Origin: an uncultured bacterium
GTDB taxonomy: Bacteria; JAGOEH01
Assembly (NCBI GenBank): GCA_964632485.1
Contig: CAZWDO010000022.1
Span: 1 to 64,000, forward strand
Direction: 5' to 3'
Length of the DNA: 64,000 nucleotides
Under the pieces are notes generated by a model, which saw nothing but the letters and a program-made list of their open reading frames with translations, ran no database searches and was not told the DNA's origin. Positions 3,901 through 28,689 of this stretch are shown piece by piece; position 1 is the first letter of the stretch; the number at the start of each line of letters is the position of its first letter. The translations under genes were made by a program, and so were the position numbers.

Positions 3901-4623
3901 TCCAATCCATATTTCTCCGCGGCTATCCTGGAAAAGCGTTCTAATGGAATTGCAACTTAAACTGTTGGAGTTATCAGGAAGATGGCGATAATAAGCGATC
4001 GAATCGCCCATAGCATCATATTTCGCCAAACCATACCTAAAAGTGGGAATCCATATATTATTATCCCGATCGCAAAGGATATTCAACGCCAATAAATTCC
4101 ATATTTCTACGGATTTCGATTGGATTGGATAGGCAAAAAATTTGTCATTTATCGGATCGTAGCGATGTAATGTCATGTCTGATGTTAAAACCCAAAGACG
4201 CTTTTTTGAATCCATAAGGAGTCGGATAATTGTGTTGTCGCTGAGACTCGAAGAATCACTTTCAATATGGTTATATACCTTGATGTTGCATCCATCGTAG
4301 CGGTTTAAGCCATCATGTGTGCCAAACCAGATAAATCCCCGCTGATCCTGAATAATAGTGTTGATTCTATTATGGGAAAGTCCTCCCTCCACGGTAATAT
4401 GCCTGAACCGTATATAAAAATTACCGGCGCAAGGGTGGTTATCGCTATCACAAAGAGATAGATGTAAAGGAAACAGTGTAACCAAAAAAAACAGAATGCC
4501 CAGTTTTTTATAAGCTCCTGATTCCGGAAAAATTAACTTGTTAATGGCGCTCTCATTTTTTATATTATAATTGCTGCATTTTTGCATGATTATTTTATCA
4601 AACCTTCTGATAAGCGGATTCAC
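925..4623 (-). CDS. Two-component-regulator beta-propeller + YYY domain + TM + SpoIIE/PP2C phosphatase (start uncertain, possibly 4587)
   Basis: Repeated D..G.IW.GT..GL propeller units, ATYTNLPAGDYVFQVKA (YYY), PPWRTWWAY TM entry, and PP2C motifs VGGDYYDF, GDVSGHG, FSDGL, DDMT. Confidence 0.9.
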   Translation of the reverse strand: MNPLIRRFDKIIMQKCSNYNIKNESAINKLIFPESGAYKKLGILFFLVTLFPLHLSLCDSDNHPCAGNFYIRFRHITVEGGLSHNRINTIIQDQRGFIWFGTHDGLNRYDGCNIKVYNHIESDSSSLSDNTIIRLLMDSKKRLWVLTSDMTLHRYDPINDKFFAYPIQSKSVEIWNLLALNILCDRDNNIWIPTFRYGLAKYDAMGDSIAYYRHLPDNSNSLSCNSIRTLFQDSRGEIWIGTSSAGLNRYRPDIDGFERYPYRPLPEGIFKSHEDNGSDSVCRPDDPYALGSGEVTALAEDTLGRIWVGTRYGGLSRLDRDTGRFHLFAWEGSDEMYSDRGVSLHALSGNSVLIMVCGPDGKFWVVSSQTKPNRTLAYLRLVCFNPVTGEITRHWMNPPEETPECFRISHQAVKLIHKDSNNRMWFQTLAGGLDLFDPKDQRFYHYRYQADDPLSLSANDVTCLFNDSMGGLWIGTETGGVNYYHPSAMKFPYYAMPEINEAGNNIIVSIFVSPFTNAPHKQVSKIWIGTAAGLNYWDREKGKIVFHQIDPNIPDVIPYAIYQNSAGYLWLGTGLGLYRSGRSLTNNVEPLEKMNFDLIIPRESAQIGRIVSIIPDRLGNLWLSSLNIGLLYYNCATQKIENVSKNDTTWRGIPKFLISRAADNRLWVYETHQLYRFDPETSKLSPYRSFTEECEIITRISINTVFDDNKGNLWIGTDGSGLIHIDLMSNSCRSYTTEHGLIRNNVRSIAADRSGRIWIATDKGLSMFDPQMKRFTNYDIQDGLANNDFYPNALLSMTDDEIILGGSKGLYAFYPDKIKENRHQPDVMITGFQLSNEAVIPGRNSILKHPIEVTDSIELTYKHRIVSFQYTALDYVSPPYNQYAYQLKGFDDHWSYVGNRKFATYTNLPAGDYVFQVKAANGDGCWSENSASLAIHIAPPPWRTWWAYLIGLFIVSSMIYFVFQYREQHYQLKLETLEKDKIEIAHNKKIEELMRARDVQLSMLPRHFPTIEKLSIAAFMHTADEVGGDYYDFRLINDHRLLFCLGDVSGHGIASGLVVSVAKTFFHTIGPSLEQNLSLPDALSLLNTKMIDFQLHPGYGICFLMGIIDTKEYSLKLVNSGIPYPYLIRTHPVPLDCGGIPLGYISETRYQQLEMKLAPDDMIFCFSDGLNERINSAEVMLGEEGLKDIIHKSIQTNLNLSGINQTIFSRIEHFAGQIPQQDDMTAILFKIS

Positions 4624-4650
4624 CCGGCTAACCGATCTGACTCAACAACC

Positions 4651-4695
4651 AACGGGACCTCTAAAAACGGGACCTCTAAAAACGGGACCTTTAAA
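4651..4695. repeat. Tandem repeat, 3 x 15 bp (AACGGGACCTCTAAA)
   Basis: Copies at 4651, 4666 and 4681; the last has one mismatch. Confidence 0.95.
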
Positions 4696-4753
4696 ATAGA
4701 TACGAGTTTTTTCCATCGTATCCCCGTTGCTGCTATAGTTGTTACTATATTCT

Positions 4754-4781
4754 AATATAACTTCAAACTTATGGATGTCAA
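4754..4781 (-). promoter_or_regulatory. Putative sigma70-type promoter for the propeller-PP2C gene
   Basis: Minus strand reads TTGACA-N16-TATATT. Confidence 0.5.
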
Positions 4782-5166
4782 GAATTTAAATTTTGGAAAA
4801 TTTATCCGGTATCAGGCGTATCAACACATGCAATTGAACTTTTCAGGTGGCTATGTTGCTCTGAAAATGAGGGGAAACTATTACTCCATGAGGCGATTCA
4901 GGCTGGTTCGCAGGTCCGGTTGGAAATTATGGTTGATTAGCCAACATTCATTTGGATATGATGATGATCAGGCAATATTTCGGCAACAGAAGTCATGGCA
5001 TATACTAAAAGGAGGTTTAAAGGGTGGAATTTTTTACAGTGTTTCCCAGGAGTATGGATGCTGCAAAGCGTTTCCGGTTCCGGTGGAAAGAGAACCGGCG
5101 CGGTGAGGGTTAGCTTCAGCGAGATGGCAGGTTAACCCTCTTACTGCGGAAATGGGTTTGCAATAA

Positions 5167-6306
5167 TCACGACTGAATAGATAAGTCATGGAACATCTTT
5201 CCGCGGGCAATCACGTGTCGGATACTCATATCTTTATCAATCAGCAGGATGTCGGCATCGGCCCCAATGCTGATCCGCCCTTTGTTCGGGAGTTTTAGAG
5301 TTTTGGCCGGATTAGTAGTGACTGGCAATAAAGCGGTTTCCAAAGGTTGGTTTTCCTGAAGCGTGAGTTCGCGCACTTCCCGCCATATCGATTCCACCCC
5401 GGCGGTTTCTAATCTCAACAGATCGCCGTTTTCGTTGAAATGCGGCAGGGAACCGCCCGCGTCACTGGAAAAGGTGATGTTTTCGGCGGGAACCCCGGCC
5501 TTGATCAATCTGGCAAATGCTGTCGAGGGTTTAATTTCCAATTCCGGATAGAGTGGCCAGGAACTGGTAGTCAAATCGATCGGTCCATTTTTTCCGTATT
5601 CGCAGGCATCTTCAAATATATAATGGTTGCGATTGCAATGGGTTGGCAGGTATTGACGGAATTTGAATTCGCTTTGATTGACGGCGTCGCGGATCAATCG
5701 GAAAGGGTCGCGGGCATCGCCCATGTGGAGGTTGATGATCCCGGCTTTAGCGCCGAGCATTCCGCCAATTCTTGCCTGTGCGGTTAGACGCAGAAATTCT
5801 GCCAGTGTCGGGCAGGAAGATCGATGATCGGCAATGGCAATTTCCCCTAATCCGATAACTTCATCAATCATGGCGATATCACGGGCAATGTCGCCGGTAA
5901 TTGTTGGCGGGGGAACTTGATAGGCGCCGGTATATATCCATGCGGAGATTCCTTTGGCGCGTAACGCTTTGGCTTTCATCAACACGCCTTCCACGCTGCG
6001 GGTGACTCCGTCGGTTCCCAGGCATCCCACCACGGATGTTACACCGTTTTGAAGAAGCTGTTCGGCGCTTAGCCCTTCGGTCCTGCTGCCCGGTCCGGCT
6101 TCCCCGCCCGCCCCGGCAATATGGGCGTGCCCGTCAATTATCCCGGGAACAGCAATCAGATTGGAACCGTCAATGATTTCCAGCGGTTTGAGCTCGGTAT
6201 GGGCAAGCTGGGGAGCAATAGCTAAAATTTTGTCTCCCCCGATCAAGATATCGCTTTTTCCTCGGGGTTTGGGTGTATATATGTCAATATCACGAATCAG
6301 TAGCAT
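5167..6306 (-). CDS. iadA: Isoaspartyl dipeptidase (beta-aspartyl peptidase, amidohydrolase fold)
   Basis: DGHAHIAGAGGEAG (HxH), GVTSVVGCLGTDG, GEIAIADHRSS, PTHCNR, SSDAGGSLP; 379 aa. Confidence 0.93.
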   Translation of the reverse strand: MLLIRDIDIYTPKPRGKSDILIGGDKILAIAPQLAHTELKPLEIIDGSNLIAVPGIIDGHAHIAGAGGEAGPGSRTEGLSAEQLLQNGVTSVVGCLGTDGVTRSVEGVLMKAKALRAKGISAWIYTGAYQVPPPTITGDIARDIAMIDEVIGLGEIAIADHRSSCPTLAEFLRLTAQARIGGMLGAKAGIINLHMGDARDPFRLIRDAVNQSEFKFRQYLPTHCNRNHYIFEDACEYGKNGPIDLTTSSWPLYPELEIKPSTAFARLIKAGVPAENITFSSDAGGSLPHFNENGDLLRLETAGVESIWREVRELTLQENQPLETALLPVTTNPAKTLKLPNKGRISIGADADILLIDKDMSIRHVIARGKMFHDLSIQS

Positions 6307-6407
6307 CTTTCCTCCTGGTCGGGTTACTGATCGATAATTCCAATCGATTCTTTATTCATCGGTTGTTAAAAATCTGACGTCATGTATGCAAACCATGGTA
6401 ATCAAGA

Positions 6408-6624
6408 TGGATGCCGGATCGGAGTCCGGCATGATGCTGCATACTCTGTCATTCCGGGCTTGATCCGGAATCCATCCGCTGCCGTCATTCTCGCGCAGGC
6501 GGGAATCCATACTTCAATTGTCATTCCGGGCTTGACCCGGAATCCAGCTTTTACCCATGGATGCCGGATCGGAGTCCGGCATGACGCTGCATACTCTGTC
6601 ATTCCGGGCTTGACCCAGAATCCA
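6408..6624. repeat. REP-like palindrome cluster A (six GTCA-type units in both orientations)
   Basis: GTCATTCCGGGCTTGA(T/C)CC(G/A)GAATCCA at 6448, 6520 and 6598; GTCATTCTCGCGCAGGCGGGAATCCA at 6484; inverted TGGATGCCGGATCGGAGTCCGGCATGA at 6408 and 6558. A block of about 68 bp repeats with a 150-bp period. Confidence 0.9.
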
Positions 6625-7567
6625 GTCTATTACCCTCGGGGAACACTCCTGAAGTGGAGGTTACTGATATCTGTTCATAGGAACCGTCCGGCATGATTTT
6701 TATCAATCCCCCTCCGAGAGTAGCGCACCAGATATTCCCCTGCGCATCGGCTTCAATATCGTTGACAGTGAATACCAGCGCCGGGATTTCGGAGGAACCG
6801 TATTTAACGATCGAACCATCGGGGGCTATGTCCCATACTTCCATGTCGGTTTGATTGGCCATCCAGATGTGGTCCCGGTTATCGATGGTCATTGCATAAC
6901 TGTATTTGCCCTCGGTTTCGCTGAGGAGCTGCCAGCTTCCATCGGCCTTACGGCAGGTAATGCCGAAATAGGTGCAAAACCAGGTGTTGCCCTGGGAATC
7001 TTTATAGATATCGTAAAATTCGGGACGGGCCGCATTCATATCCAGTGTGAAACCAATGTCAGAGAGTTGCCATTCGGACCAATTGGCGCCGAAATCTTCG
7101 GAAACATAGATGCGGGATAAGGTGCGGTCGCTTGAATTGCGAATGGAGATATAGACCTTGCCATCGGGATCGGTGAGTACGGAACGGTCATATTGGCCGG
7201 AGGTGAAGGCGATCTGTTCCTTGTCGCCGTTGGCGCGCATCACGGTAATCCCATAATGGGTGCAGAACCAGAGTCCGTTTTGAGTATCTTCAGAAATAAA
7301 AAAAACTCGGCCGTCGGTTCCAAAAAGATTCAGGTCGTCTTTGTTGAAAACCGTCCAGGTTGTCATATCGGCGGCCAGGCGCGAGGTGTAGGCAAACCCG
7401 TCGCCACTTTTTTGTCCGCCGAACCAGATATCCCCGGCATGATCGATGGTGATGGAATAGACTTTGTTGAACGGCAAACCGCTGTTGTCGGAATTGTAAA
7501 CGGTAAAATCAAGCGCCGACAGATTCAGAACGAGAGCCAGGATCAAAAGACTCACCATTTGTTTCAT
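6599..7567 (-). CDS. Secreted beta-propeller protein (two-component regulator propeller repeats), apparently 3'-truncated
   Basis: Signal peptide, NSGLPFNKVYSITID..GDIWFG and D.QGN.W repeats. The stop codon lies inside a REP unit. Confidence 0.75.
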   Translation of the reverse strand: MKQMVSLLILALVLNLSALDFTVYNSDNSGLPFNKVYSITIDHAGDIWFGGQKSGDGFAYTSRLAADMTTWTVFNKDDLNLFGTDGRVFFISEDTQNGLWFCTHYGITVMRANGDKEQIAFTSGQYDRSVLTDPDGKVYISIRNSSDRTLSRIYVSEDFGANWSEWQLSDIGFTLDMNAARPEFYDIYKDSQGNTWFCTYFGITCRKADGSWQLLSETEGKYSYAMTIDNRDHIWMANQTDMEVWDIAPDGSIVKYGSSEIPALVFTVNDIEADAQGNIWCATLGGGLIKIMPDGSYEQISVTSTSGVFPEGNRLDSGSSPE

Positions 7568-7590
7568 GGTTTGTACTCCTTGTGTTAAAA

Positions 7591-9009
7591 TTAGCTTCCA
7601 ATCAGGGTTTCGTCATCCCGCAGACGAGGCGCGAGCGCGAATCCCGTGAAACCGTAAATAAGAGCAAATATAAACCCGCTGTAGCACATCACGGCCCAGG
7701 GGGCATACTCCAGTGTCGGCACGCCCAGCGTACCGGACATGAAAATTCCGGCCATACTCCAGGGAATGAGTGGCACGACGACTGCGCCGCTGTCTTCGGT
7801 TGTCCGTGATAAATTTTTTGCCGCCAAATTGAATTTTTTAAAAGCGCCGGCATAGAGTTCAGCCGGCAGTAAAATTGCCAGAAATGAACTGCCGGTGATC
7901 AATGCCACGGAAATCGAGGAGAGTACAGTCGCGGCCACTAATTTGCCGGTAGTATTGGCGATGCGCAGGATATGCCGCAATATCGTATCCAGCATCCCCG
8001 TTTTTTGCATGATTCCGCCAAATGCAAAGGCCGCGAACGCGATGAGCGTCACATCCATCATACTCATCATTCCCCCGCGGGAAAGCAGCATGTTCACCGC
8101 TTCATCGCCGGTTTGCGCCTTATAACCCTCCACGAAGGCCTTGATACCGTCGCTTAAGCCATACCCCTGGAAAATGGCGGCGAGGAGCAGGGCGGCGGCC
8201 GACGAAAGCAACATGTAGGGAATGACCGATTTTTTACGCAGCGCCGCTGTCAGCGTGATCAGCGGGGGCAGTAAAAGCAGCCAGTGAAATCGATAATGGC
8301 TGGACAACGTCGCGAGTATCTGATCCATTTTGACCATGGAGATCGCCTGTTGCTGGGTGGACGTGAACCCTAAGATCAGGTAGATCAGCAGTCCCAGGGA
8401 CCAGGCCGGTACTGTTGTCCACATGGTATGGCGGATATGGTCGAAAAGATTGCTTTGCGAGGCGGCCGGAGCCAGATTGGTCGTGTCGGAAAAAGGAGAA
8501 AGCTTGTCGCCGAAATAAGCGCCGGCAACAATAGCGCCAGCGGCTTGGCCCAACGGAACTCCCAATCCCTGGGCAATACCGATGAAAGCGATTCCCACCG
8601 TGCCCGCCGATCCATAGGAAGTTCCGGTTACCACCGATACCAGACTACAAACCAGGCAGGCTGTTAATAAATAAAAACGGGGGGAAATCAGTTTCAGACC
8701 GTAATAAACCAGCATAGGAATGGTTCCCGCAGCGATCCAGGATGCGATCAAACCTCCGACGCTAATAACAATCAGCATGGCCGGCATGGCTTTTCCCATG
8801 CTCTCCACAATCCCTTGCTCCATTTCCTTGTAACTGTATCCCAACGTTAGAGCGGAAAACCCGGCAATTACACTTGCTCCGAGCAACACGGCCGCCGCGG
8901 GCAGGTGAAAATATCCCAGGCCAATGCCAATTAATAGCAAAACGCAGAACAAAGGGATGAGCGATGCGGCCAGGCCGGGAAGCGGATGAGTTGATTTCTT
9001 TTCAGTCAT
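7591..9009 (-). CDS. nhaC: NhaC-family Na+/H+ antiporter-like transporter (possibly an amino-acid or dipeptide carrier)
   Basis: Many TM helices, GAYFGDKLSPFSDTTNL and LSRTTED motifs. ATG at 9009 follows an AAGGA RBS just after the upstream gene's stop. Confidence 0.88.
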   Translation of the reverse strand: MTEKKSTHPLPGLAASLIPLFCVLLLIGIGLGYFHLPAAAVLLGASVIAGFSALTLGYSYKEMEQGIVESMGKAMPAMLIVISVGGLIASWIAAGTIPMLVYYGLKLISPRFYLLTACLVCSLVSVVTGTSYGSAGTVGIAFIGIAQGLGVPLGQAAGAIVAGAYFGDKLSPFSDTTNLAPAASQSNLFDHIRHTMWTTVPAWSLGLLIYLILGFTSTQQQAISMVKMDQILATLSSHYRFHWLLLLPPLITLTAALRKKSVIPYMLLSSAAALLLAAIFQGYGLSDGIKAFVEGYKAQTGDEAVNMLLSRGGMMSMMDVTLIAFAAFAFGGIMQKTGMLDTILRHILRIANTTGKLVAATVLSSISVALITGSSFLAILLPAELYAGAFKKFNLAAKNLSRTTEDSGAVVVPLIPWSMAGIFMSGTLGVPTLEYAPWAVMCYSGFIFALIYGFTGFALAPRLRDDETLIGS

Positions 9010-9020
9010 TTTTGTTTCCT

Positions 9021-10676
9021 TTAATGAATAATGGCGCGCGGAATTGTGATAATCGGGCGTTCGTTGCGTAATAATGAAAAAAAGTAGGTTCCCGAGGGGA
9101 TTGACCCACACGGCTGAAAAAAGTGAATCCGGCCGGATTCGTCCGGTTGAGCGATGATTTGCATGATCTCCCGGGCCAACAGATCCCTCAGAGTTATTCG
9201 TACCGGCTGTTGAGTGGCGATTCGGCAATGGATGGTAGCCCCGTCGCTGATGGGATTGGGCCATACTTCAAAGTGAGGCATGGGCTCATCCAGGGTCCCG
9301 CGCGGCTGTTCATCGGTCTCAGTTGAGGTTGGGAATTGATGGTTTTTCAGGTCATAGCTTTCGCCATGTCCCAGCCAATGCAACATTCCGTCGATGATGG
9401 CGGGCTGTTTTTTTGCATCGATACCCAGATAGCGGGCGGAATTGTTTTCCAGTATCCATACCAGTCCACCGGCTGTCAATATACCTTCTTCATTGACGGT
9501 AATGGAGCTGTTGTCATCGAGATAAATGGTTGAAAACCAGGAATGAGTGGCCAATCCATACTGGCCGCCCATGATGCGGTTGGCGATATAATCGCTGTGG
9601 TTGAATAATTTTGGAATGATAATAGCGCGGGGAATCTGCCCGCTGCCATCGGCTTGCGTCAGGCGCCCGTAATACCAGTCCAGTTTGTTTGCCGTTAAAT
9701 TTGGAATTGTAATTGTACCGGCAGTAGCTGTATTCTCGTCGTTTCCGTTCAGCGTGACCGATTGATAGGATACCGGTTCGGGAACGGGGCCCGGTTCGTT
9801 GACATAAGCGGGTTTTTGCAAGAGCGTTCGGTTGGCCAGATCATAAACGCAACCGGCAATCATTTGGGTAAAATGGATATCGGTAAAGGTTAGCGGCTGA
9901 TTGGCCTGACATTCAATCAGCGACGCGGCGGTCGGGTAGAGGATGGTGACGGTGGTGTTGCCATAGACCGTGCCGATAAGATTGCTATCGACGCAGAAAG
10001 CGGTATAGGCATCGACCCCGATCCCCATGATGTTGTCCTCATTAAAATCCACAATTCGGCGGGCGAGCATAGGGACTAAGCGGCCGAGCCGTCCTCGTTC
10101 CTGGAAATGCGAATCGGTGATGACGTTAGTGAGCAGTGGGAGAAATGTGTCATTGAAGGTGAGGCGATAATGGTAGGGATTCCAGGCCGCGTCTTTGGGA
10201 CCCAGACTGCCGCTGCGGGCGTCAAAATCAACCGATCCCAGTACGGCAAGTCCGGCGCTGGTGCCGCCGATGGCTCCTCCGCGAGCGAATATTTCCATGA
10301 TGGCCTGTTCGACCAGGGTTCCCTGCCAGTTAGTAAAATAAACATATTGATCGCCGCCCTCGATAAAAATGCCGTTGGCGGTTAACAACTCCTGATAGAC
10401 GGCCGAATCGTTAGCCTGGCTCCGCGCGCTGATTTGCAGTTCATGGCTGTTGCTATCAGCGCCCAGCCATTTGAAATATGCCGGATACCAATCGCTGGCC
10501 TCACTGACGTCGATATTGATAATAATACCGCTATCGGCCTGGCGGACAAACCAGCCATAGGGTTGATCCGACCATTTATTATAGTTTTCAGAGCCGCCGC
10601 CGACCAACAACAGTGAACCGCGCCCATAACAGATTGCCGGTATTAGAAGTATGAGAAACCAGATATAACGGTGCAT
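9021..10676 (-). CDS. Secreted cyanophycinase-like serine peptidase (family S51) with a C-terminal T9SS-type sorting domain
   Basis: Signal peptide, LLLVGGG, GGDQ, GGTSAG nucleophile, DSHFQERGRLGRL; C-terminal VWPNP...SGTYFF. Confidence 0.85.
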   Translation of the reverse strand: MHRYIWFLILLIPAICYGRGSLLLVGGGSENYNKWSDQPYGWFVRQADSGIIINIDVSEASDWYPAYFKWLGADSNSHELQISARSQANDSAVYQELLTANGIFIEGGDQYVYFTNWQGTLVEQAIMEIFARGGAIGGTSAGLAVLGSVDFDARSGSLGPKDAAWNPYHYRLTFNDTFLPLLTNVITDSHFQERGRLGRLVPMLARRIVDFNEDNIMGIGVDAYTAFCVDSNLIGTVYGNTTVTILYPTAASLIECQANQPLTFTDIHFTQMIAGCVYDLANRTLLQKPAYVNEPGPVPEPVSYQSVTLNGNDENTATAGTITIPNLTANKLDWYYGRLTQADGSGQIPRAIIIPKLFNHSDYIANRIMGGQYGLATHSWFSTIYLDDNSSITVNEEGILTAGGLVWILENNSARYLGIDAKKQPAIIDGMLHWLGHGESYDLKNHQFPTSTETDEQPRGTLDEPMPHFEVWPNPISDGATIHCRIATQQPVRITLRDLLAREIMQIIAQPDESGRIHFFQPCGSIPSGTYFFSLLRNERPIITIPRAIIH

Positions 10677-10741
10677 GGCTGACTACTTTCGTTGTGCGTT
10701 AAACATTTCGCCATTCCAACGCCCTTTTTTCCCTCGCCCCT

Positions 10742-10915
10742 GTCATTCTCGCCTGCCTGTCGGCAGACAGTCGCAAGCAGGAAACCACGGGACAGATGGA
10801 TGCCGCGTCCAGAGCGGAGTGACGGCGGTAGCGGTTACCCATGGACTCCGGGTCGAAGCGCGGAGTGACGGAGGTAGCGGTTACCCATGGACTCCGGGTC
10901 GAAGCCCGGAGTGAC
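10742..10915. repeat. REP-like palindrome cluster B, including a 46-bp tandem unit
   Basis: Forward GTCATTCTCGC... unit at 10742. Inverted units ending GGAGTGAC at 10797, 10842 and 10888; CGGAGTGACG recurs at 10815, 10861 and 10907. Confidence 0.88.
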
Positions 10916-10937
10916 GGCGGAGGACAAATCACACAGA

Positions 10938-11942
10938 TCAAAAAATGAACGTAAAAGAGAGAGTATGCGCCGAACCGAGATCGCCAAATTGAGAAAACGC
11001 ATAATCGAGACGGCTGGTGGTACTCATTACTTTCAAAATTGCGCCGGCGCCGAGAGTGAAACTGTCTTCATCATAATTGATTTTATAGCCGCCACGCAAC
11101 ATATAGGATTCCATAAAAGCATACTCAGCGCCTAAACCGATGCGGGATCGGTTATCATTCGGATCATCGGCGCTGATCGATGTCGTGAATCGATGTGTTT
11201 CATCTCGCCAGGGATCGAAGGCAATGCCGACACGGAAAATCTGCGGCAATGAGTATTCTTCCGACAGACGTTCTTTTCGGGGATTATTGGCCTGGGAGGT
11301 ATCGGCCAGTTCAGTCGCCAGTTTTTCATCGATTTCATCGCCGCCCATCTTCAGATTTCCGCCGAAATTGGCGATGATCATACCGATGCGCAGGTTGTGG
11401 AAATCGGTGCGGTAAAGGGAGGCAAAATCAAAAGCCATGGAAGAGGTGTTGAGTTCCCAGATATACTCATACACATATTTGGCGGTTATACCGAAACTGA
11501 AACGATCGGTCAGGGCGCGCGAATAGGAAAGATTGATCGCCAGATCACCGGCGCCGAATTGCTCGCCGGTACCGGTGGGTTGGTATTCGGTGGTGATATC
11601 CATTTTATCCATTTGAAAAGAGGTCACGGCCAGTCCAAAGGCGCCGATTTTCGATACCGGATGCGCCACGCCGAAATAAAGCAGACGCGTATCGGCCAGC
11701 CAGTTCGCATGGCTGAAAATCAGTTCGGTGTTTTCGATCAGACTGAGCGCGGCCTGGTTCCAATAAAGTCCCTCTACGCCGCGGGCCATGGCGACATAGG
11801 AATTGCCCAGGGCCGCGCCCCGCGCTTCAACCGGGATTTGCAGAAAATTAGCGCCCGCGCTGCCGGTGTTGCGAAAGGAACCTGCATCCAGCGTACTCAG
11901 TCCCCACAATATCAGAAAGATAATCGAGGTTATTCTATTCAT
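10938..11942 (-). CDS. PorV/PorQ-family outer-membrane beta-barrel
   Basis: GANFLQIPVEARGAALG...YWNQAAL N-terminal signature, alternating barrel strands and a terminal Phe. Confidence 0.85.
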   Translation of the reverse strand: MNRITSIIFLILWGLSTLDAGSFRNTGSAGANFLQIPVEARGAALGNSYVAMARGVEGLYWNQAALSLIENTELIFSHANWLADTRLLYFGVAHPVSKIGAFGLAVTSFQMDKMDITTEYQPTGTGEQFGAGDLAINLSYSRALTDRFSFGITAKYVYEYIWELNTSSMAFDFASLYRTDFHNLRIGMIIANFGGNLKMGGDEIDEKLATELADTSQANNPRKERLSEEYSLPQIFRVGIAFDPWRDETHRFTTSISADDPNDNRSRIGLGAEYAFMESYMLRGGYKINYDEDSFTLGAGAILKVMSTTSRLDYAFSQFGDLGSAHTLSFTFIF

Positions 11943-11963
11943 AATTGTTACTCCTTGCCTGCC

Positions 11964-13841
11964 TTAGCGGATAATGGCGAACTTGCCGACTTTATCGCCC
12001 TGAGAGGATGAAACGTGGTAAAAGTAGATGCCGGTGCTCACCATCTGATTATATTCCGAACGGATATCCCAATACTCGATGCCGGTTCCGTTATTGTGAT
12101 GAATGGTTCGCACCAGATCGCCATCGACGGTGTAGATTTTAATGGCGCATACGGAGGGCAGGTTGCGAAATGAAAGCTCGCGGATTGGTTCGCCGTCGCT
12201 AATGCCCCCCAGGCGGGCCCGTTCCCATTTGGCCGAGATCAGATAGGGATTGGGAACGACTTGAATCTGAGAAAGATCGGTCATGGCATCACTGGCCGGC
12301 CGCAACTCCACGGTGTTGAGACTATCTTTCAACAGGGATTTGCCGGATTCATCGCCCAGGCTGTCATAGGCGGTCACGGAATAGGAATAGTAAAAACTGT
12401 TGAGGACGCTATGATCGGTCCAGGTATAGGCATTCTCCTGATAAGCATCGGCTTCGCTATACTGGCGGGCCACCGAGTCGATTTTGGTCCACAGAACGCG
12501 ATTGGGATCTTCGGTACGATAGACGTAATAGCCTTGCAGGGTATTGCGGTTGGAAAGCACATCCAGATATTCGCGGTCCAACTGGTTGCTCCAATTTAAT
12601 AGGCACTGATTATTGGTGACGCTGCCGACAATCGTGGGTACTGGTACCGATTTCACGCGCCAGTTACCTCTATAAACTTCCCAGATGCGATCGACGTTTT
12701 CGCTGATTTCATTATAGTCCTGGCCGGCCACCAAAGCGACAATAAAGACCAGGCTGTCGCCGGGCGCCAGGGTGTAGGGCCCGGAAGAGGTGAAGGAGAC
12801 CAGTATGGCGCCGGTATCGGGAATCAGCGAAGGATCATCGTAATGCAGGTCCTCTCCGTGGAACAACAGGGGCCATTTGGCGCTGTCGGCCCGCAGGACG
12901 GGGCTGCTGCTGATATAGTTGTATTGCGCGGTGTCATAGGAGATGACACTCGGTTCACTGTAATTGTCCGTATAATGGAAGTCGGTGATACCTTTGCGCG
13001 CGCCGTCGATTTCCGGGGTTTCCAGCATCACGATGCCCACATGAAAGGGCAATCCGCTCCACTGGTCGGAATAGTTGTCGGAATCGTAGAAATAGACGAA
13101 CTGACGCTCGCGGTCGAAGCCCAGTTTGTCGTCGGCGTATTCATTGCCCGATTCAAAACCGCCGGCGTCGAAGTCGGTGTACATCGAGTAATAGAGACTG
13201 TCCAGAGTTTTGTCGCCCATATTGACCAGTTTATGGCGAAAGACAATATAATCTTCATCCAGGGCGGTGTTCCAGGCATAGCTGGTCTGATGCACCTGAA
13301 TATTCAGGTAATCATTGGGATTGCGCAGGCCTTTATAGTTGGTGGCATCGCGAAACACCGCGTAGGAATCCTGCTGGGAAATGATGAGATGATTGCCATC
13401 GCTGTCCTGTACCGGCCAGTAGGCGTTGCCCTGACCGTCCAGCGGCCAGGTTTCCGGCTTGTTGCTGATGGGCAGCGCCCCGGCGTTCGGATTGTGATAG
13501 CCGGCGACCGGGTCCCATTCCTTGGTGCCCGAGGTGCGGGTCTGCACCACGTTGCCGGGAACGCCGATATAGATATTCATGCGGTACATCTGTTCGTGTT
13601 TGGAACCCAGCGGCCATTCGGCGGTGGGGGATACCTCGTTCCAGGAAGAATAGAACTGGCCTATGTTAGAAACGTACTGGCCCAGTTTATTGATATCCAG
13701 AGTCGTATAGGCGCGATTTTTCAGGTCCATGGCGCCCAACTCGTTGCGATTGTCCGTTTCCGGCCGCGGCCGCGCCTGGCTCAGGCTCAGGCTCAGAATC
13801 AGCAGAATCATGAGCCGGTGAATGCTTTTTTTATCGATCAT
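11964..13841 (-). CDS. Secreted hypothetical protein with an FN3-like region and a C-terminal FlgD-Ig/T9SS-like domain
   Basis: Signal peptide; C-terminal IQVVPNPY...IKIYTVDGDLVRTI...WDIRSEYNQMVSTGIYFYHV. Confidence 0.8.
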   Translation of the reverse strand: MIDKKSIHRLMILLILSLSLSQARPRPETDNRNELGAMDLKNRAYTTLDINKLGQYVSNIGQFYSSWNEVSPTAEWPLGSKHEQMYRMNIYIGVPGNVVQTRTSGTKEWDPVAGYHNPNAGALPISNKPETWPLDGQGNAYWPVQDSDGNHLIISQQDSYAVFRDATNYKGLRNPNDYLNIQVHQTSYAWNTALDEDYIVFRHKLVNMGDKTLDSLYYSMYTDFDAGGFESGNEYADDKLGFDRERQFVYFYDSDNYSDQWSGLPFHVGIVMLETPEIDGARKGITDFHYTDNYSEPSVISYDTAQYNYISSSPVLRADSAKWPLLFHGEDLHYDDPSLIPDTGAILVSFTSSGPYTLAPGDSLVFIVALVAGQDYNEISENVDRIWEVYRGNWRVKSVPVPTIVGSVTNNQCLLNWSNQLDREYLDVLSNRNTLQGYYVYRTEDPNRVLWTKIDSVARQYSEADAYQENAYTWTDHSVLNSFYYSYSVTAYDSLGDESGKSLLKDSLNTVELRPASDAMTDLSQIQVVPNPYLISAKWERARLGGISDGEPIRELSFRNLPSVCAIKIYTVDGDLVRTIHHNNGTGIEYWDIRSEYNQMVSTGIYFYHVSSSQGDKVGKFAIIR

Positions 13842-13856
13842 AGTGTTCTCCTAAAT

Positions 13857-16436
13857 TTAGAAACTCACGTTCATGCCCAGATAGATAGTACGCGGCGAAC
13901 TCCACTTGGTGGGATCGTTGATGTATTCCGGGATCAGCGGATCGGCATTGGGACCGGGATCATCCGGTTTGCCGGTGGCCGTGTAAACGAATAGCACGTT
14001 TTTACGGTTGGTCAGATTATAGATCTGAAAGTTGACGCCTATGCGCCAGCGGCCGATCTTGAAGCGTTTTTCAGCTTCCAGGTCCACCGACCAGGTCGAT
14101 GGCCGTCGCGCGTTGTTCAGATTGGGTTCATAGCGTTTGCGCGTGGGGTTGTAAGTGTAGGGCAATCCGCTGCCGTAGCGGAAGATAAATGTGTAGAATG
14201 AATTTTGGAACACTGACGGCGCCAGGTTGAAGGGGCCTTCGCCCTGGTTGAAGCTCATGCCCAGATTGGCGTTGATACTATGGCGCTGGTCAAATTCCAA
14301 TGGATAGAATTGCATAGACTGGCGGCCCTTGACGTCGTAGGCGCCTTCAAATTTTTCCTCCTGGGAGGAACTGCTGCCCTCAGCGATGGAAAAGGTATAA
14401 TTGGCTCCCAGGCTGATGAATTTCCAGTTGAAATCGCCTGAAATCTCAAATCCTTTGACGTAAGCGAAATCTTCGTTGGTGAAATAGGCGTACTGATAGG
14501 GTTCGTCGGCTTCGCGAAAATGCCAGCCCACCCCGATCAGTCCCGAGATTTTTTTACTGAATACCGTTGTTTGCAGGGTCACATTTTCATTTAAATAGGT
14601 ATGTAAACCCAGTTCATAGCTGACCGTCTTTTCCGGATCCATATCGGGATCGCCGAATAGCGGTTTGTTGACGTTCAGATTGCGACTCAGGTCTTCATAG
14701 AGAATGCGGTAATCCGGCCGCTGGAAAAAATGGCCATAAGCGAAATGGAAAACTGTCTTGTCGCTGATCGGATAGGCGATTCCGAGACGCGGGCTGATTT
14801 GCGTCTTGGCGGAGGCGTCTTTCGTAGCGCCGCTGGCAACATTATCTATATAGTTAATGTTGGGATGGTAATAATCGAAGCGCAGGCCGGCGTTAAGGAT
14901 GATCGATTCAAATTCGATCTTATCCTGGATATAGGCCGCAGCTTCGTACGGCTTTTCCTCATAATCGTTCAGATAGCGATTGGCGCCGCGCCACCAGTCG
15001 TAACTCCAGTAATACTCCAGATCATGCTGGTTGAATTCAAAACCAGCCTTGAGCAGATTGAAGCGGTCCATCTGCCAGGTCAGATCGAATTTTTCGGTGA
15101 AGGTCTGCACGGTTTCGTCGTCGTATTCCGAATTGGCGGCTTGCAGATTAAAAGGGGCTTCGGTAAGCCAGATTTTTCCGCTGGGGGTGTAAAGTGTATC
15201 GATCAAGTCGTTGTAATTGCGTTTATAATGGTATTTATAATACGACAAGCGAAATTCATAAAACAGATTGACGCTGAGAGTGTGGGTAAAACTGAGTCCC
15301 GCGAACTGACTGGCGCTTTGGCGCACGTATGAGCTGTCCGGGATATATTTGTTGGCGTGGACATAGTTCATCCATTCCTGGTCGTCCATCTTATAGGAGA
15401 GGCTGATTTTACCGGCGGAGAAAGGTTTAAAAAACAGTTTGCCAAAAAAAGAATTGAGATCGTTATAACCGAAAGCGTTTCCGGAGAATTTCCCGCTGGG
15501 GGTTCCATAGGGGTCCGTGGGGTCGCCGCGGTCGAGAACCCCGCTTTCATAGTAGTTATCGCGAGTGGAAATTTTGCCGGAAATTAAAAATCCGATGGAA
15601 CTTTTAGGGTAGAGCGGGCCGTTCACAAAGCCCTCGATGATTTGTTGATTGTAATTATCGCTGGCATCTTCCAAACCCAGATTGGTGCGGCGGTAGAGCA
15701 GGCGGCCGCCATAACTGGAAACATTTTCCTTGGTGACGATATTGACTACTCCGGACATGGCATTGCCGTATTCGGCGTTGAAGGTGCCGGAGATCATTTC
15801 CATCTGCTGGATCGCTTCGTTGTTGATTTCGAGGGTGTTGGAACCGAAGAGCGGGTCCTCAAGACGATGGCCGTCGATCAAATAGGCCACTTCTCCCGTG
15901 CGTCCCCCGCGAACGTGGACTCCGCCGCTGTTGACTACGCCGGCCTGGAGATTAATAATTTCGTTCAGGGAATTGACCGGCATATTATCGATTTTGTCGG
16001 CGGAAACATTGCGTTTTGTGGACGTTACGTCTTTTTCGACTTTGGGCTGTTCCGCTTCAATGACAATCACATCGGCAATCTGCAGCGTGGTCTCGGAAAG
16101 TTTGAAATTTAACGGGGTGGTCTGATCCACCCGGACAAAAACATTGGTCTGCTTCAACGCCGAATAACCCATGGAAGTTGCCCGGAGCGTGTAGGTTCCC
16201 GGAGAAATGTTGATGATTTGATAGTAGCCATCCATATCACTGGTACTACCTTGTTTTTCGGACATATCGACTTCAATATCATCGAACCAGATCGATTCGA
16301 TATAGACATTGACACCCGGCAGGGGTTCACCCGTTGCTTGATCGGTGACTCGGCCGGCAATCTTGCCGGTCGTTCCTGCCCACAGTGTGAAAGACAAGCA
16401 AACGAGCGAGAGTAGAGCGGATAAAATTACTCTCAT
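13857..16436 (-). CDS. TonB-dependent receptor with an N-terminal carboxypeptidase-regulatory-like domain
   Basis: GTTGKIAGRVTD..TGEPLPG, plug HVRGGR, GTFNAEYGNAMSGVVNIVTK, SPRLG, terminal ...GMNVSF. Confidence 0.92.
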   Translation of the reverse strand: MRVILSALLSLVCLSFTLWAGTTGKIAGRVTDQATGEPLPGVNVYIESIWFDDIEVDMSEKQGSTSDMDGYYQIINISPGTYTLRATSMGYSALKQTNVFVRVDQTTPLNFKLSETTLQIADVIVIEAEQPKVEKDVTSTKRNVSADKIDNMPVNSLNEIINLQAGVVNSGGVHVRGGRTGEVAYLIDGHRLEDPLFGSNTLEINNEAIQQMEMISGTFNAEYGNAMSGVVNIVTKENVSSYGGRLLYRRTNLGLEDASDNYNQQIIEGFVNGPLYPKSSIGFLISGKISTRDNYYESGVLDRGDPTDPYGTPSGKFSGNAFGYNDLNSFFGKLFFKPFSAGKISLSYKMDDQEWMNYVHANKYIPDSSYVRQSASQFAGLSFTHTLSVNLFYEFRLSYYKYHYKRNYNDLIDTLYTPSGKIWLTEAPFNLQAANSEYDDETVQTFTEKFDLTWQMDRFNLLKAGFEFNQHDLEYYWSYDWWRGANRYLNDYEEKPYEAAAYIQDKIEFESIILNAGLRFDYYHPNINYIDNVASGATKDASAKTQISPRLGIAYPISDKTVFHFAYGHFFQRPDYRILYEDLSRNLNVNKPLFGDPDMDPEKTVSYELGLHTYLNENVTLQTTVFSKKISGLIGVGWHFREADEPYQYAYFTNEDFAYVKGFEISGDFNWKFISLGANYTFSIAEGSSSSQEEKFEGAYDVKGRQSMQFYPLEFDQRHSINANLGMSFNQGEGPFNLAPSVFQNSFYTFIFRYGSGLPYTYNPTRKRYEPNLNNARRPSTWSVDLEAEKRFKIGRWRIGVNFQIYNLTNRKNVLFVYTATGKPDDPGPNADPLIPEYINDPTKWSSPRTIYLGMNVSF

Positions 16437-17311
16437 AGTGCCTCCTGTGGCGTTTGATTAGGGTTGTTGGGTATGATCGACGGTTGACCCGACAATTCGC
16501 GGATCTTTTGCATAATCGTTAGACTTTTGCTTTCGTTGCGACGCGCGCATTCAGTTGTTAATGAATTGATAATAACGGAAATGGCGGCCATGGAATTCGT
16601 GTATAACATGTTGGCGCTTTCAATAAATAATGACTCCAGCGCAAAACTGCATATCGGGGCGATTTTATGGTCCGTTATCGCTATTACCTTGATGGATTGA
16701 CGGGAGGCCTCTTCGGCTAATATCAGGGTCTCCGGCGAGTAAGGCGGAAAAGAAAAGCAGATTAAACAATCTTTGGGTTGTGTATATAATAATTGCTCCA
16801 GGAAGGTTGTGGTTCCCTGCCGAAAATACTGCGCCGCAATGCCGATTTGATGGAGCTGATAGGATAATAGCTGCGATAATAAGTATGAAAGTCCCAATCC
16901 GGCGGTATTCACTCGTTGGCTGGTCAGAATAATCTCGACAATCATTGAAAACTTAGCTCGACTATTCATCTGAATGGTCTGGTTAATGTTTTGGATCTCC
17001 TGATTGGCGATGGCCGTCATGACATCATCCTGGATATTATTGTTCAATGGAAAACTATAGGGTTTGGCGATTTCACTTTGCAATGAGGCTGTTATTTCTG
17101 CCCGGAATCCACTGAACCCGTCATATCCCAGCAGCTTTGCGAAACGCACAATCGATGCCAGGCTTGTATTCGTCTGCGCGGCGATATCTTCGATTGTCAT
17201 CAGCGCGACATTGTGGGTGTTGTTAATCATAAAATCGGCAATGCGACGCTGGGTCAAGCTGAAATGATTGTAGGCGCGGTAAATTTTTTCTTTGACTTGA
17301 TGGGGTTTCAT
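16433..17311 (-). CDS. MurR/RpiR-family transcriptional regulator (HTH + SIS)
   Basis: TSLASIVRFAKLLGYDGF HTH; SIS motifs SFPPYS and AITD...PI. Its stop overlaps the receptor start (ATGA). ATG at 17311 has an AAAGGA RBS. Confidence 0.9.
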   Translation of the reverse strand: MKPHQVKEKIYRAYNHFSLTQRRIADFMINNTHNVALMTIEDIAAQTNTSLASIVRFAKLLGYDGFSGFRAEITASLQSEIAKPYSFPLNNNIQDDVMTAIANQEIQNINQTIQMNSRAKFSMIVEIILTSQRVNTAGLGLSYLLSQLLSYQLHQIGIAAQYFRQGTTTFLEQLLYTQPKDCLICFSFPPYSPETLILAEEASRQSIKVIAITDHKIAPICSFALESLFIESANMLYTNSMAAISVIINSLTTECARRNESKSLTIMQKIRELSGQPSIIPNNPNQTPQEAL

Positions 17312-17363
17312 CTGGCGTCCTTTGTCAAAATACATGGAAAAAAATAATCAATAAAAATAATTT

Positions 17364-17415
17364 ATGAAAATTATTTTTCATTTTGCATAATAGGTTATTT
17401 TAATCTGCTTGTCAA
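17364..17415 (-). promoter_or_regulatory. Promoter plus palindromic operator for the rpiR-TBDR locus
   Basis: TTGACA(17410-15)-N17-TATTAT(17387-92), then near-palindrome ATGAAAAATAATTTTCAT (17364-81) over the expected transcription start. Confidence 0.7.
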
Positions 17416-17505
17416 GTGAAAAATTTAAAAAAAATATCTTTAATGAATTTTTATTTATGCTTTAGATACTTTACGTGATGGATAGGTTGTGATTATTAAT
17501 ATAAT

Positions 17506-17530
17506 TGAAAAACTCAGCGCGCGCTGAGTT
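17506..17530 (-). terminator. Intrinsic terminator after the GGDEF gene
   Basis: Perfect 20-bp palindrome AACTCAGCGCGCGCTGAGTT (17511-30) running into a T-tract on the minus strand. Confidence 0.65.
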
Positions 17531-17611
17531 GAAATGATACAGAGGGAAGGCGCGCTTCAAGGGTATGGTATCTATCAGTAGCTTTGGATTTCAGACAGGG
17601 AATGCTGATGG

Positions 17612-18349
17612 CTATCGGGATTCCTGGTACAAGCGATATGTGTTCCGGCCTTCACCCTTTGCCCAGTACATGGCAACGTCGGCATTCTTCATTAATGTTA
17701 AAGCCTGGTTAGCATCTTTTGGGAAAAAACTGATTCCGATAGAAGCGCCAATGTGCGCTTGTCCCATGGAGAGGGAGAATGGCGTATTCATTTCAGCCAC
17801 GATTTTTTCTGCAATCTGAGTTACCGTTTTTTGATCGGCCGGTTGACAAAGAGACATGGTGAATTCATCTCCGCCAAGACGGGCAAGAATATCACCCTGG
17901 CGACAACGGGAACTCAGGCGCTGCGAAACCTGGATCAGCAGTTCATCCCCCGCGTCGTGCCCCATGGTGTCGTTAACTTGTTTGAACTTGTCCAGATCGA
18001 TAAACAACAGGGCCAGAGTTTGCCCCATTTGTTTGGCATCGGCGCATGTCTGCTGCAATAATTCGTGAAACAGGCCACGATTGGGCAATCCGGTCAGAGG
18101 ATCGTGTCTGGCATTAATCAAATCGATTTGAGCGCCAAGCAAGTCCTCAATCATAAGTTCCAGACGAAATTCGCGCGCTTCATTCTGAATGGAAAGATTA
18201 TTGATCTGTTCGGCCAGTTCTACGACTAAAGGCGGAATTTCAACGCTTCCCGTCATCGCATCCAGATCGTGAATCGCTGCCGGATCGCCACGTATGACGC
18301 CGCGAACGATTTCCAGTAACAAGGCTAAGGGTTTTGATAAATCGTTCAT
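17612..18349 (-). CDS. Diguanylate cyclase (GGDEF)
   Basis: HDPLTGLPNR, DLDKFKQVND, RQGD I-site and RLGGDEF. Confidence 0.93.
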   Translation of the reverse strand: MNDLSKPLALLLEIVRGVIRGDPAAIHDLDAMTGSVEIPPLVVELAEQINNLSIQNEAREFRLELMIEDLLGAQIDLINARHDPLTGLPNRGLFHELLQQTCADAKQMGQTLALLFIDLDKFKQVNDTMGHDAGDELLIQVSQRLSSRCRQGDILARLGGDEFTMSLCQPADQKTVTQIAEKIVAEMNTPFSLSMGQAHIGASIGISFFPKDANQALTLMKNADVAMYWAKGEGRNTYRLYQESR

Positions 18350-18405
18350 CGCATGCCTCCGGTCAAATTCGATTGATAGGAATTGTTAATAGCTACACTT
18401 TATAT

Positions 18406-18434
18406 ATAGTAAGATGATTTGGGATATTTGTCAA
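18406..18434 (-). promoter_or_regulatory. Putative sigma70-type promoter of the GGDEF gene
   Basis: TTGACA-N17-TACTAT. Confidence 0.55.
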
Positions 18435-18599
18435 GTAAAATTTTAAAAAAAATATTTCCAATTATATAGTAATCCTTACCTGAAACCTTTTAATATTTTG
18501 AACCTTTGACGTTTCCATTTTTTTGCATTGGTGACTTGAGGACAAATCTGTTTGACTTGTTTAAAATTCATGGTTAATCGCGCTGGATTTGTTGAGAGA

Positions 18600-28581: not shown

Positions 28582-28643
28582 GAGAGTTCCTTTCTCATGA
28601 AGGGTTGAAAAGAGTGGGTTGAAAACAATTTTGCCTGGCCACA

Positions 28644-28689
28644 ATGAAATTCAATTTCATATTGTACTAAATAATTAATTGCTTGTCAA
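28644..28689 (-). promoter_or_regulatory. Promoter plus palindrome for the tlpA-TBDR operon
   Basis: TTGACA(28684-89)-N17-TACAAT(28661-66), immediately followed by ATGAAATTGAATTTCAT (28644-60). Confidence 0.65.

Follow-up and report, generated by a model that had tools for sequence, protein, structure and literature searches.

Cyanophycin is a widespread bacterial store of nitrogen and carbon. To our knowledge, the organisms that consume it after cell lysis are poorly known outside the Bacteroidota and Proteobacteria. Here we examine a locus of eight genes in a stretch of 64,000 nucleotides (contig CAZWDO010000022.1 of GenBank assembly GCA_964632485.1; hereafter the window) from an uncultured aquatic bacterium of the lineage JAGOEH01. 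The genes encode an RpiR-type regulator, a TonB-dependent receptor (TBDR), a secreted protein of 625 residues (P625), an outer-membrane barrel of the PorV/PorQ family, a secreted protein with a peptidase S51 domain, an NhaC-family carrier, a Reg_prop beta-propeller protein and the isoaspartyl dipeptidase IadA. An earlier note on this DNA had put them forward as a complete scavenging pathway for cyanophycin or beta-aspartyl peptides, organised in a way that it did not know from any described locus. We find that the locus belongs to a kind already known; this variant combines IadA, NhaC and a SusD-less module linked to the type IX secretion system (T9SS) in a deep lineage, and it is probably best explained as a horizontally acquired, SusD-less version of the cyanophycin utilisation locus (CUL).

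The CUL of Ben Hania and colleagues (2017) is reportedly that of Salinivirga cyanobacteriivorans L21-Spi-D4. Under the name ‘cyanophycin utilization locus’, Ben Hania et al. 2017 is cited in Sharon 2023 (PMC10206079), a paper which, like the others given here by PMC accession, we draw on in excerpt, and which also counts gene clusters for scavenging in which a cyanophycinase, a dipeptidase and an amino-acid transporter come together. Pieces of the architecture are on record as well, a TonB-dependent transporter next to a cyanophycinase having been noted in 2012 (PMC3400609) and a cyanophycinase with a Por-secretion domain mentioned in 2018 (PMC6243061); with the CUL in print since 2017, the claim of novelty cannot be kept. 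In the literature searched, cyanophycinase and type IX secretion were not found together in any paper. A further related system is the aot operon of Pseudomonas aeruginosa with the dipeptidase CphZ (AotO), described in PMC9974463, which likewise serves the uptake and cleavage of beta-Asp-Arg in a bacterium that does not make cyanophycin. As excerpted, that operon has an ABC importer and an M14-type dipeptidase and neither a depolymerase nor an outer-membrane module, whereas the dipeptidase of the window is IadA.

Results

Comparison with the cyanophycin utilisation locus

As the CUL is cited in PMC10206079, the window’s locus resembles it in being a scavenging locus in a genome without the cyanophycin synthetase gene cphA, in its S51 content (the CUL has cyanophycinase-type S51 genes, one of them with a Por/T9SS domain), and in carrying iadA, an inner-membrane transporter and a TonB-dependent importer. 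It differs in having no SusD-like gene and a TBDR that is not SusC-type by hidden Markov model (HMM), with P625 and the PorV-like barrel in their stead. Furthermore, its long S51 protein has only the catalytic domain in common with the long forms of Bacteroidota, its carrier is NhaC and not DcuC, and the canonical cyanophycinase is encoded at another place in the genome. Of the features by which such clusters are recognised in that excerpt, the window has a clustered isoaspartyl dipeptidase, a transporter (of predicted substrates) and no cphA; for the cyanophycinase itself, its S51 protein has the fold and the pocket but falls short of the cut-off of the cyanophycinase model TIGR02069, the canonical copy being on contig C2.

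The genome (4.45 Mb, 97.95% complete, GC 0.438) contains no cphA, the best match to TIGR02068 reaching 28.7 bits against a cut-off of 850, which extends to the whole genome what had been remarked for the window; because of this we regard scavenging, rather than storage, as the role of the locus. The canonical cyanophycinase, at C2:308713-309570, scores 179 bits with TIGR02069 and has a hydrophobic N-terminus of the signal-peptide kind. It stands directly beside a DcuC/YfcC-type carrier (C2:307304-309570), and the same pair occurs upstream of the TBDR, P625 and PorV genes (hereafter the trio) in two related loci, L025 and L047. Since this cyanophycinase and carrier are on contig C2, the pathway would be split between two places in the genome. 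The scavenging scheme of the earlier note (surface depolymerisation, TonB-dependent uptake, import and dipeptide cleavage) therefore fits the comparative evidence and the lack of cphA, but not as a pathway complete within the window.

The genome also encodes PorU (638 bits) and SprA (593 bits) together with about 49 further matches to T9SS tails. In the genome set used for comparison there was one relative of the same family and one of the same order, all others sharing only the domain. The organism thus comes from a deep lineage with few sampled genomes, and it nonetheless has a full T9SS.

Related loci

We compared the locus with 80 loci around relatives of its S51 protein, these being the best 80 of 552 confirmed, with at most 10 kb taken on each side. 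In 20 of the 80 the trio lies next to a T9SS-tailed S51 gene (16 complete, four cut by contig ends). These triad-type loci are labelled Calditrichota, KSB1, Neomarinimicrobiota/Fidelibacterota, Ignavibacteriota and, in some cases, Bacteroidota/Cytophagia. Their usual order is (M20), (short S51), (DcuC), RpiR, TBDR, P625, PorV, (propeller), (NhaC), (M14 with T9SS tail), S51. The core of TBDR, P625, PorV and S51 thus recurs among relatives. The gene iadA, which had been counted as part of the locus, is in none of the 20. One locus labelled Cytophagia (L022:1-20008) has two tandem trios, one on each side of the T9SS-tailed S51 gene.

A second type, the SusC/SusD type, comprises 12 loci from Bacteroidales and Cytophagales (L045, L053, L056, L057, L058, L066, L072, L076-L079 and L081). 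Here the gene that follows the TBDR (about 970-1190 aa) falls into a single cluster, the tested member of which (L057, Marivirga sericea) is of the SusD family, and several S51 genes and DcuC are also present. These loci match the CUL as cited in PMC10206079. In five Bacteroidales loci a divergent iadA stands beside S51 genes and SusC/SusD.

Triad-type loci are repeatedly found near a canonical cyanophycinase. The short S51 protein of L025, encoded beside M20 and DcuC genes upstream of the trio, scores 170 bits with TIGR02069 (cut-off 126.6). In all five of the further triad-type genomes tested (those with L010, L014, L015, L017 and L022), the contig with the T9SS-tailed S51 gene also encodes a canonical cyanophycinase (169-199 bits), 12-13 kb away and just beyond the 10-kb flank. 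Taken together, these sequence data point to a strong link between the triad module and a genuine cyanophycinase.

Relatives also carry peptidase genes that the window’s locus lacks. A T9SS-tailed M14 carboxypeptidase gene adjoins the T9SS-tailed S51 gene in 13 of the 80 loci (L014, L015, L017, L008, L028, L036 and others) and an M20 peptidase gene is found in 7 of the 80, upstream, where the window’s locus has none. Conceivably, the M14 enzyme might remove Arg from cyanophycin. As a candidate for CphZ it did not hold, a sequence search of the PDB returning classical carboxypeptidases and no CphZ entry.

A cyanophycinase-like S51 protein

The S51 protein is predicted to consist of a signal peptide, a domain of cyanophycinase fold (residues ~20-290), a middle domain (~300-450) and a divergent T9SS C-terminal domain (~470-551). 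It matches the Pfam S51 family with 28.8 bits (cut-off 23.9), and the middle domain, considered as a possible dead copy of the S51 domain, gives a weak hhalign match to it (probability 26%, E 7e-4, 97 columns). Its own family has more than 1000 matches, of which the best 120 are mostly 537-580 aa long and nearly all T9SS-tailed, the named members among them coming from Calditrichota and Eisenbacteria. In Foldseek searches with the structural model (pLDDT 85.3), residues ~20-290 aligned with cyanophycinases at target-normalised TM-scores of 0.81-0.85 (E 1e-15 to 2e-19) and with peptidase E at about 0.6, so that the predicted fold is nearer to cyanophycinase.

In the cyanophycinase CphB, we take Ser132, His174 and Glu201 to be the catalytic triad and Gln101, Asp172, Gln173, Arg178, Arg180 and Arg183 to form the pocket, the roles which Law and colleagues are said to have assigned in 2009. 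We followed these positions in an alignment of 120 family members (the best 120 matches), with CphB numbering taken from the alignment to 7uqw. The equivalents of Q101, S132, D172, H174, R180 and R183 are invariant in the 120 relatives and that of R178 is kept in 119, and thus five of the six pocket residues are conserved. The S51 fold, the Ser-His pair and the Arg-rich pocket are conserved in comparison with CphB (Synechocystis, 3EN0 and 7UQW), and the predicted export of the protein is a feature in common with the extracellular CphE of Pseudomonas anguilliseptica.

Several findings, however, weigh against a plain assignment as cyanophycinase. With TIGR02069 the protein scores 87.6 bits (88.5 in the genome scan), below the cut-off of 126.6. 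At the sixth pocket position, Gln173, every one of the 120 relatives has Ser or Thr. The column of the catalytic Glu201 holds Ala in the window’s protein, Tyr in 61 of the 120 relatives and an acidic residue in 49; beside this Ala the window’s protein has Asp at the D200 column, and an acidic residue at either D200 or E201 is found in 119 of the 120. Both CphB and CphE lack the additional middle domain and the T9SS tail. The closest solved relative, by sequence (65 bits, compared with 35.6 for true CphB) as well as by fold, is the structure 7UQV. Its title, ‘Pseudobacteroides cellulosolvens pseudo-CphB’, suggests that the depositors did not regard that protein as a cyanophycinase; the papers searched gave no match for ‘pseudo-CphB’, nor for cyanophycinase together with Pseudobacteroides cellulosolvens. 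On the sequence and the modelled fold we therefore call the S51 protein cyanophycinase-like and not a certified cyanophycinase. The enzyme activities of all proteins of the locus are, likewise, predictions only.

The same findings favour the alternative that survives best, in which the locus would serve the general utilisation of peptides or proteins. In that case the T9SS-exported S51 protein, with the T9SS-tailed M14 enzyme in relatives, would trim ordinary or Asp-rich peptides at the cell surface, the TBDR would import oligopeptides like RagAB, and IadA would only clear isoaspartyl by-products. The M14 and M20 peptidases of the related loci would suit such a role, and IadA enzymes accept a broad range of beta-aspartyl dipeptides (PMC10206079). 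It would have to be reconciled, however, with an Arg-rich pocket that is invariant across the family, with a fold closer to cyanophycinase than to peptidase E, with a canonical cyanophycinase that travels with the module in L025 and every further genome tested, and with the lack of any general endopeptidase in the window’s locus. We consider it unlikely.

The outer-membrane trio

The TBDR has CarboxypepD_reg and Plug domains and a barrel of the 22-strand type, and its homologues in related loci are 36-45% identical. It gave no match to the SusC/RagA models of NCBIfam at E<=0.01, and the SusD Pfam family was found in none of the nine proteins scanned. P625 comprises a signal peptide, an unassigned N-terminal region, beta-sandwich and FN3-like domains and a T9SS-type C-terminal domain ending in GKFAIIR; apart from this weak tail it matches no Pfam family. 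Its model has a mean pLDDT of 66.9, with residues 20-166 poorly modelled. A function could not be read from the fold, as Foldseek returned only generic FN3 arrays with query-normalised TM-scores of at most 0.16. We treat P625 as a candidate surface partner of the TBDR. The barrel exceeds the cut-off of 90 bits for NF033709, the model of the broad PorV/PorQ family, and remains below that of the PorV equivalog NF033710 (79 bits against 250); on these scores it is a PorV/PorQ-family paralogue and not the PorV equivalog.

Complex prediction with residues 395-625 of P625 and the barrel gave an ipSAE of 0.91, with 0.00 for the best control. Among solved complexes 58 of 80 reach that mark, as do 2 of 110 mismatched pairs; at least 75% of the contacts are common to the docking runs, with a partner pLDDT of at least 81. 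The predicted contacts of the barrel fall on the C-terminal domain of P625 (residues 527-532 and 557-625), and the model thus supports docking of this domain on the PorV-like barrel. Solved complexes of PorV with cargo proteins exist. The score may therefore owe something to likeness to such T9SS complexes, which counts against giving it full weight.

The arrangement recalls SusC/SusD (RagA/RagB), in which the gene of a TonB-dependent importer is likewise followed by that of a large surface protein, the locus being specific for a substrate and also encoding surface enzymes and a regulator. In the window, however, the partner is an all-beta, FN3-containing T9SS cargo protein and not a lipoprotein of SusD fold, and a PorV-family barrel is encoded by the third gene. 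Six more such trios are present in the genome (Table 1), each made up of a TBDR, a large T9SS-tailed partner ending in GKFAIIK, GKFAIIR or GKFAIIN and a PorV-family barrel. In these, as in the triad-type loci, the barrel gene always comes third, after the TBDR and the T9SS-tailed partner. Because of these six copies we regard P625 and the barrel as generic parts for uptake, not specific to cyanophycin, and the earlier reading needs changing in this respect. Some of the additional trios adjoin regulators of LacI or other type and further T9SS cargo genes.

No description of a trio of TBDR, T9SS-tailed partner and PorV-like barrel was found in the titles and opening lines of abstracts that were searched. 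We tentatively propose, with somewhat more doubt than confidence, that the trio is a general machine for nutrient capture that replaces SusD in lineages of the FCB group outside, and partly inside, the Bacteroidota. After secretion by the T9SS, the partner would stay attached to its own barrel through its C-terminal domain, rather than being cleaved and lipid-anchored. Here the machine would be aimed at a polypeptide, cyanophycin, and a deep-branching lineage would have received it horizontally in the form of a cassette, which recombined with iadA.

IadA and the junction beside it

By its family matches, IadA is a metal-dependent isoaspartyl (beta-aspartyl) dipeptidase, predicted to be cytoplasmic. 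It exceeds the cut-off of the equivalog model TIGR01975 (438 bits against 331), and residues 3-372 match solved IadA structures over their full length (266-307 bits among PDB entries, 307 for 7cdh and 294 for 1onw of Escherichia coli). Its best relatives are 56-61% identical, the named ones coming from Bacteroidales, Salinivirgaceae and Cloacimonetes. There is no signal peptide. The gene, the only iadA of the genome, is on the strand of the S51 gene, at a distance of 2.7 kb from it.

The propeller protein next to it is truncated. Its alignment with the counterpart from L010 (442 aa) extends over no more than residues 29-308 of the latter, and the protein has kept its signal peptide while losing the FlgD_ig/T9SS tail of about 130 aa which its relatives have. 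The gene is cut off exactly at the start of a cluster of hairpin repeats resembling repetitive extragenic palindromic (REP) elements, its final codons running into the cluster, and it may be a non-functional remnant. The cluster, which the earlier note had pointed out as a place of possible misassembly, is real: the units are native to this genome, where at least 15 contigs together carry about 25-30 of them. An Rfam scan of 4000-18500 gave no match at E<=0.1. In two marine-metagenome runs, the summed depth of the contigs that match 6420-6903 is 721 and 913, compared with about 4-5 elsewhere, which shows the repeat to be far more widely distributed than this one genome.

It is thus fair to ask whether iadA stands in the locus by accident. 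On such an explanation, which is compatible with cyanophycin as the substrate, iadA would be functionally outside the locus, brought next to it by REP-mediated rearrangement or by an assembly join, and the remnant locus may be decaying. The junction was checked on Logan contigs; among the runs listed as carrying the stretch there is no RNA run. Two runs from an independent sample (X2 and X3) cover all of 4000-18500, with a depth of about 4-5x to either side of the REP cluster, but no listed contig spans 6434 to 6862. In run X1, record 2 extends to 6586 from the iadA side and record 3 takes up again at 6862. Two joints, 6476>10835 and 6537>10751, connect REP copies, their sides measuring just 20-21 nt. 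The truncation of the propeller gene and the REP-filled gap before iadA would fit an accidental join, and so would the comparative data: because iadA is absent from the 20 triad-type loci, and TIGR01975 finds nothing above its cut-off in any of the five triad-type genomes tested, its linkage could be accidental, which counts against our interpretation. On the other side, the GC and GC3 of iadA (0.519 and 0.542) are raised like those of the locus, the flank beyond it dropping to GC 0.43-0.44; the gene is co-oriented and intact with its own strong Shine-Dalgarno sequence; the other seven genes are counted as intact; and iadA belongs to the Bacteroidales version of the locus, whose copies are 54-56% identical to the window’s IadA. 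We hold a merely accidental iadA to be quite improbable. On the comparative sequence data we read it as a lineage-specific addition beyond a rearranged junction and outside the conserved core.

Carrier and regulator

The NhaC protein exceeds the cut-off of TIGR00931 (370 bits) and is below that of the NhaC-type ArcD model (330 bits against 650). Orthologues 52-63% identical are found in 12 of the 80 related loci, while the paralogue in the same genome is only 40% identical. It is a candidate for the inner-membrane importer of beta-Asp-Arg or its products.

RpiR is the probable regulator of the locus, and homologues (37-44% identity) lie upstream of the TBDR in nine related loci, two of them (L017 and L059) being fragments at contig ends. 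Regulators of this family usually sense sugar phosphates, which sits less well with a cyanophycin locus. The best models for the window’s protein are MurR/RpiR and could hint at the uptake of peptides derived from peptidoglycan or otherwise modified (D-isoAsp bridges, muropeptide stems), as could the general activity of IadA on beta-aspartyl dipeptides and the weak match of one relative’s T9SS-tailed M14 to MpaA (25.5 bits, cut-off 157), but the regulator falls well short of the cut-off of each equivalog model, the locus has no amidase, lytic transglycosylase, MurNAc or sugar gene, and the link to a canonical cyanophycinase would go unexplained, so that we consider this alternative very improbable.

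Layout and origin of the locus

Open reading frame calls and scans with Pfam and NCBIfam agree on the eight co-oriented genes named before (Table 1). From rpiR through the PorV-like gene they are tightly packed, with an overlap of 4 nt followed by gaps of 15 and 21 nt; the S51-NhaC and NhaC-propeller gaps are 11 and 23 nt. Two gaps are long, PorV-S51 (261 nt, 10677-10937) and propeller-iadA (292 nt, 6307-6598), and both are filled by REP-like hairpins, which may interrupt an operon. The REP-like units border the S51-NhaC-propeller block on both sides. The promoter-like site sits after the terminator of the upstream GGDEF gene. Such sites number 18 across the region, compared with 16.8 +/- 3.9 in shuffles, and because they are not in excess the ‘one promoter-operator’ proposed before is a consensus match only. 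With its 11 of 12 consensus positions and its inverted repeat it is plausible, but a single operon is not borne out.

Table 1. Positions of the genes and sequence features discussed (numbering of the window unless a contig is named)
Feature	Position	Strand	Description
rpiR	16433-17335	minus	HTH_6 + SIS domains
TonB-dependent receptor (TBDR)	13857-16436	minus	CarboxypepD_reg, Plug, barrel domains
P625	11964-13841	minus	625 aa, signal peptide, weak T9SS tail
PorV/PorQ-family outer-membrane barrel	10938-11942	minus	NF033709, 208 bits
S51 protein	9021-10676	minus	551 aa, signal peptide, T9SS-tailed
NhaC-family carrier	7591-9009	minus	TIGR00931, 471 bits
Reg_prop beta-propeller protein	6599-7567	minus	322 aa
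iadA	5167-6306	minus	TIGR01975, 438 bits
Whole locus	5167-17335	minus	eight genes
Promoter-like site upstream of rpiR	17387-17415	minus	TTGACA-17-TATTAT, sigma-70-like consensus, 11/12
7-nt inverted repeat downstream of promoter-like site	~17362-17379		ATGAAAA/TTTTCAT
REP-like element + two tandem 46-nt repeats, PorV-S51 gap	10735-10902	no strand
REP-like hairpin repeat cluster between propeller gene and iadA	6407-6625	no strand
Additional trio 1	C5:166001-172686
Additional trio 2	C6:219720-225618
Additional trio 3	C8:48177-55194
Additional trio 4	C9:55315-62483
Additional trio 5	C11:43838-50896
Additional trio 6	C21:48953-56698

The genes of the locus have GC 0.45-0.54 and GC3 0.53-0.68, compared with a mean GC3 of 0.464 +/- 0.076 for the genome, and the window’s S51 query did not find the gene in the genome of the same family (92% complete) or of the same order (98% complete). 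Compared with relatives, the locus has S51, NhaC and propeller in a permuted order, a truncated propeller gene, no M14 gene and iadA as an addition. From these sequence features we read the locus as a cassette acquired horizontally, followed by REP invasion and rearrangement.

Signalling genes lie on both sides of the locus (925-4623 and 17612-21254), one flank encoding a 1232-aa Reg_prop/Y_Y_Y/SpoIIE phosphatase and the other a GGDEF protein and an 884-aa PAS/GAF protein. Further along the window (24893-28644), a second TBDR (808 aa, OMP_b-brl_3 type) adjoins a 442-aa protein resembling thioredoxin/AhpC, with GC raised to 0.52.

Discussion

Read as a SusD-less variant of the CUL, the locus would work as follows. 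The S51 protein, exported by the T9SS, would attack extracellular cyanophycin or a close beta-aspartyl polyamide at the cell surface. The TBDR would import the fragments with the help of the T9SS-tailed P625, held at the surface by the locus’s own PorV-like barrel, the trio taking the role that SusC/SusD has in Bacteroidota. In the periplasm, the canonical cyanophycinase from contig C2 with its signal peptide would finish the breakdown to beta-Asp-Arg, which NhaC from the window, the DcuC-type carrier from C2, or both, would move across the inner membrane. In the cytoplasm, IadA would split the dipeptide into Asp and Arg, and RpiR would probably control expression. Compared with relatives, the version found here would be a rearranged one, in which the propeller protein has lost its tail, the M14 peptidase is absent and iadA is found where relatives have no dipeptidase.

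The comparison suggests a dedicated scavenging system in Calditrichota, KSB1, Marinimicrobia/Fidelibacterota, Ignavibacteriota and one isolated deep lineage. The final dipeptidase of this system appears to be interchangeable, being IadA in one case and M20 in the other, and its outer-membrane module departs from the SusC/SusD paradigm. A substrate as simple and chemically defined as cyanophycin would, furthermore, give a handle for studying how the T9SS-linked module works. For the organism itself, the sequence evidence taken as a whole indicates that the locus most likely lets this uncultured aquatic bacterium harvest cyanophycin made by other bacteria.

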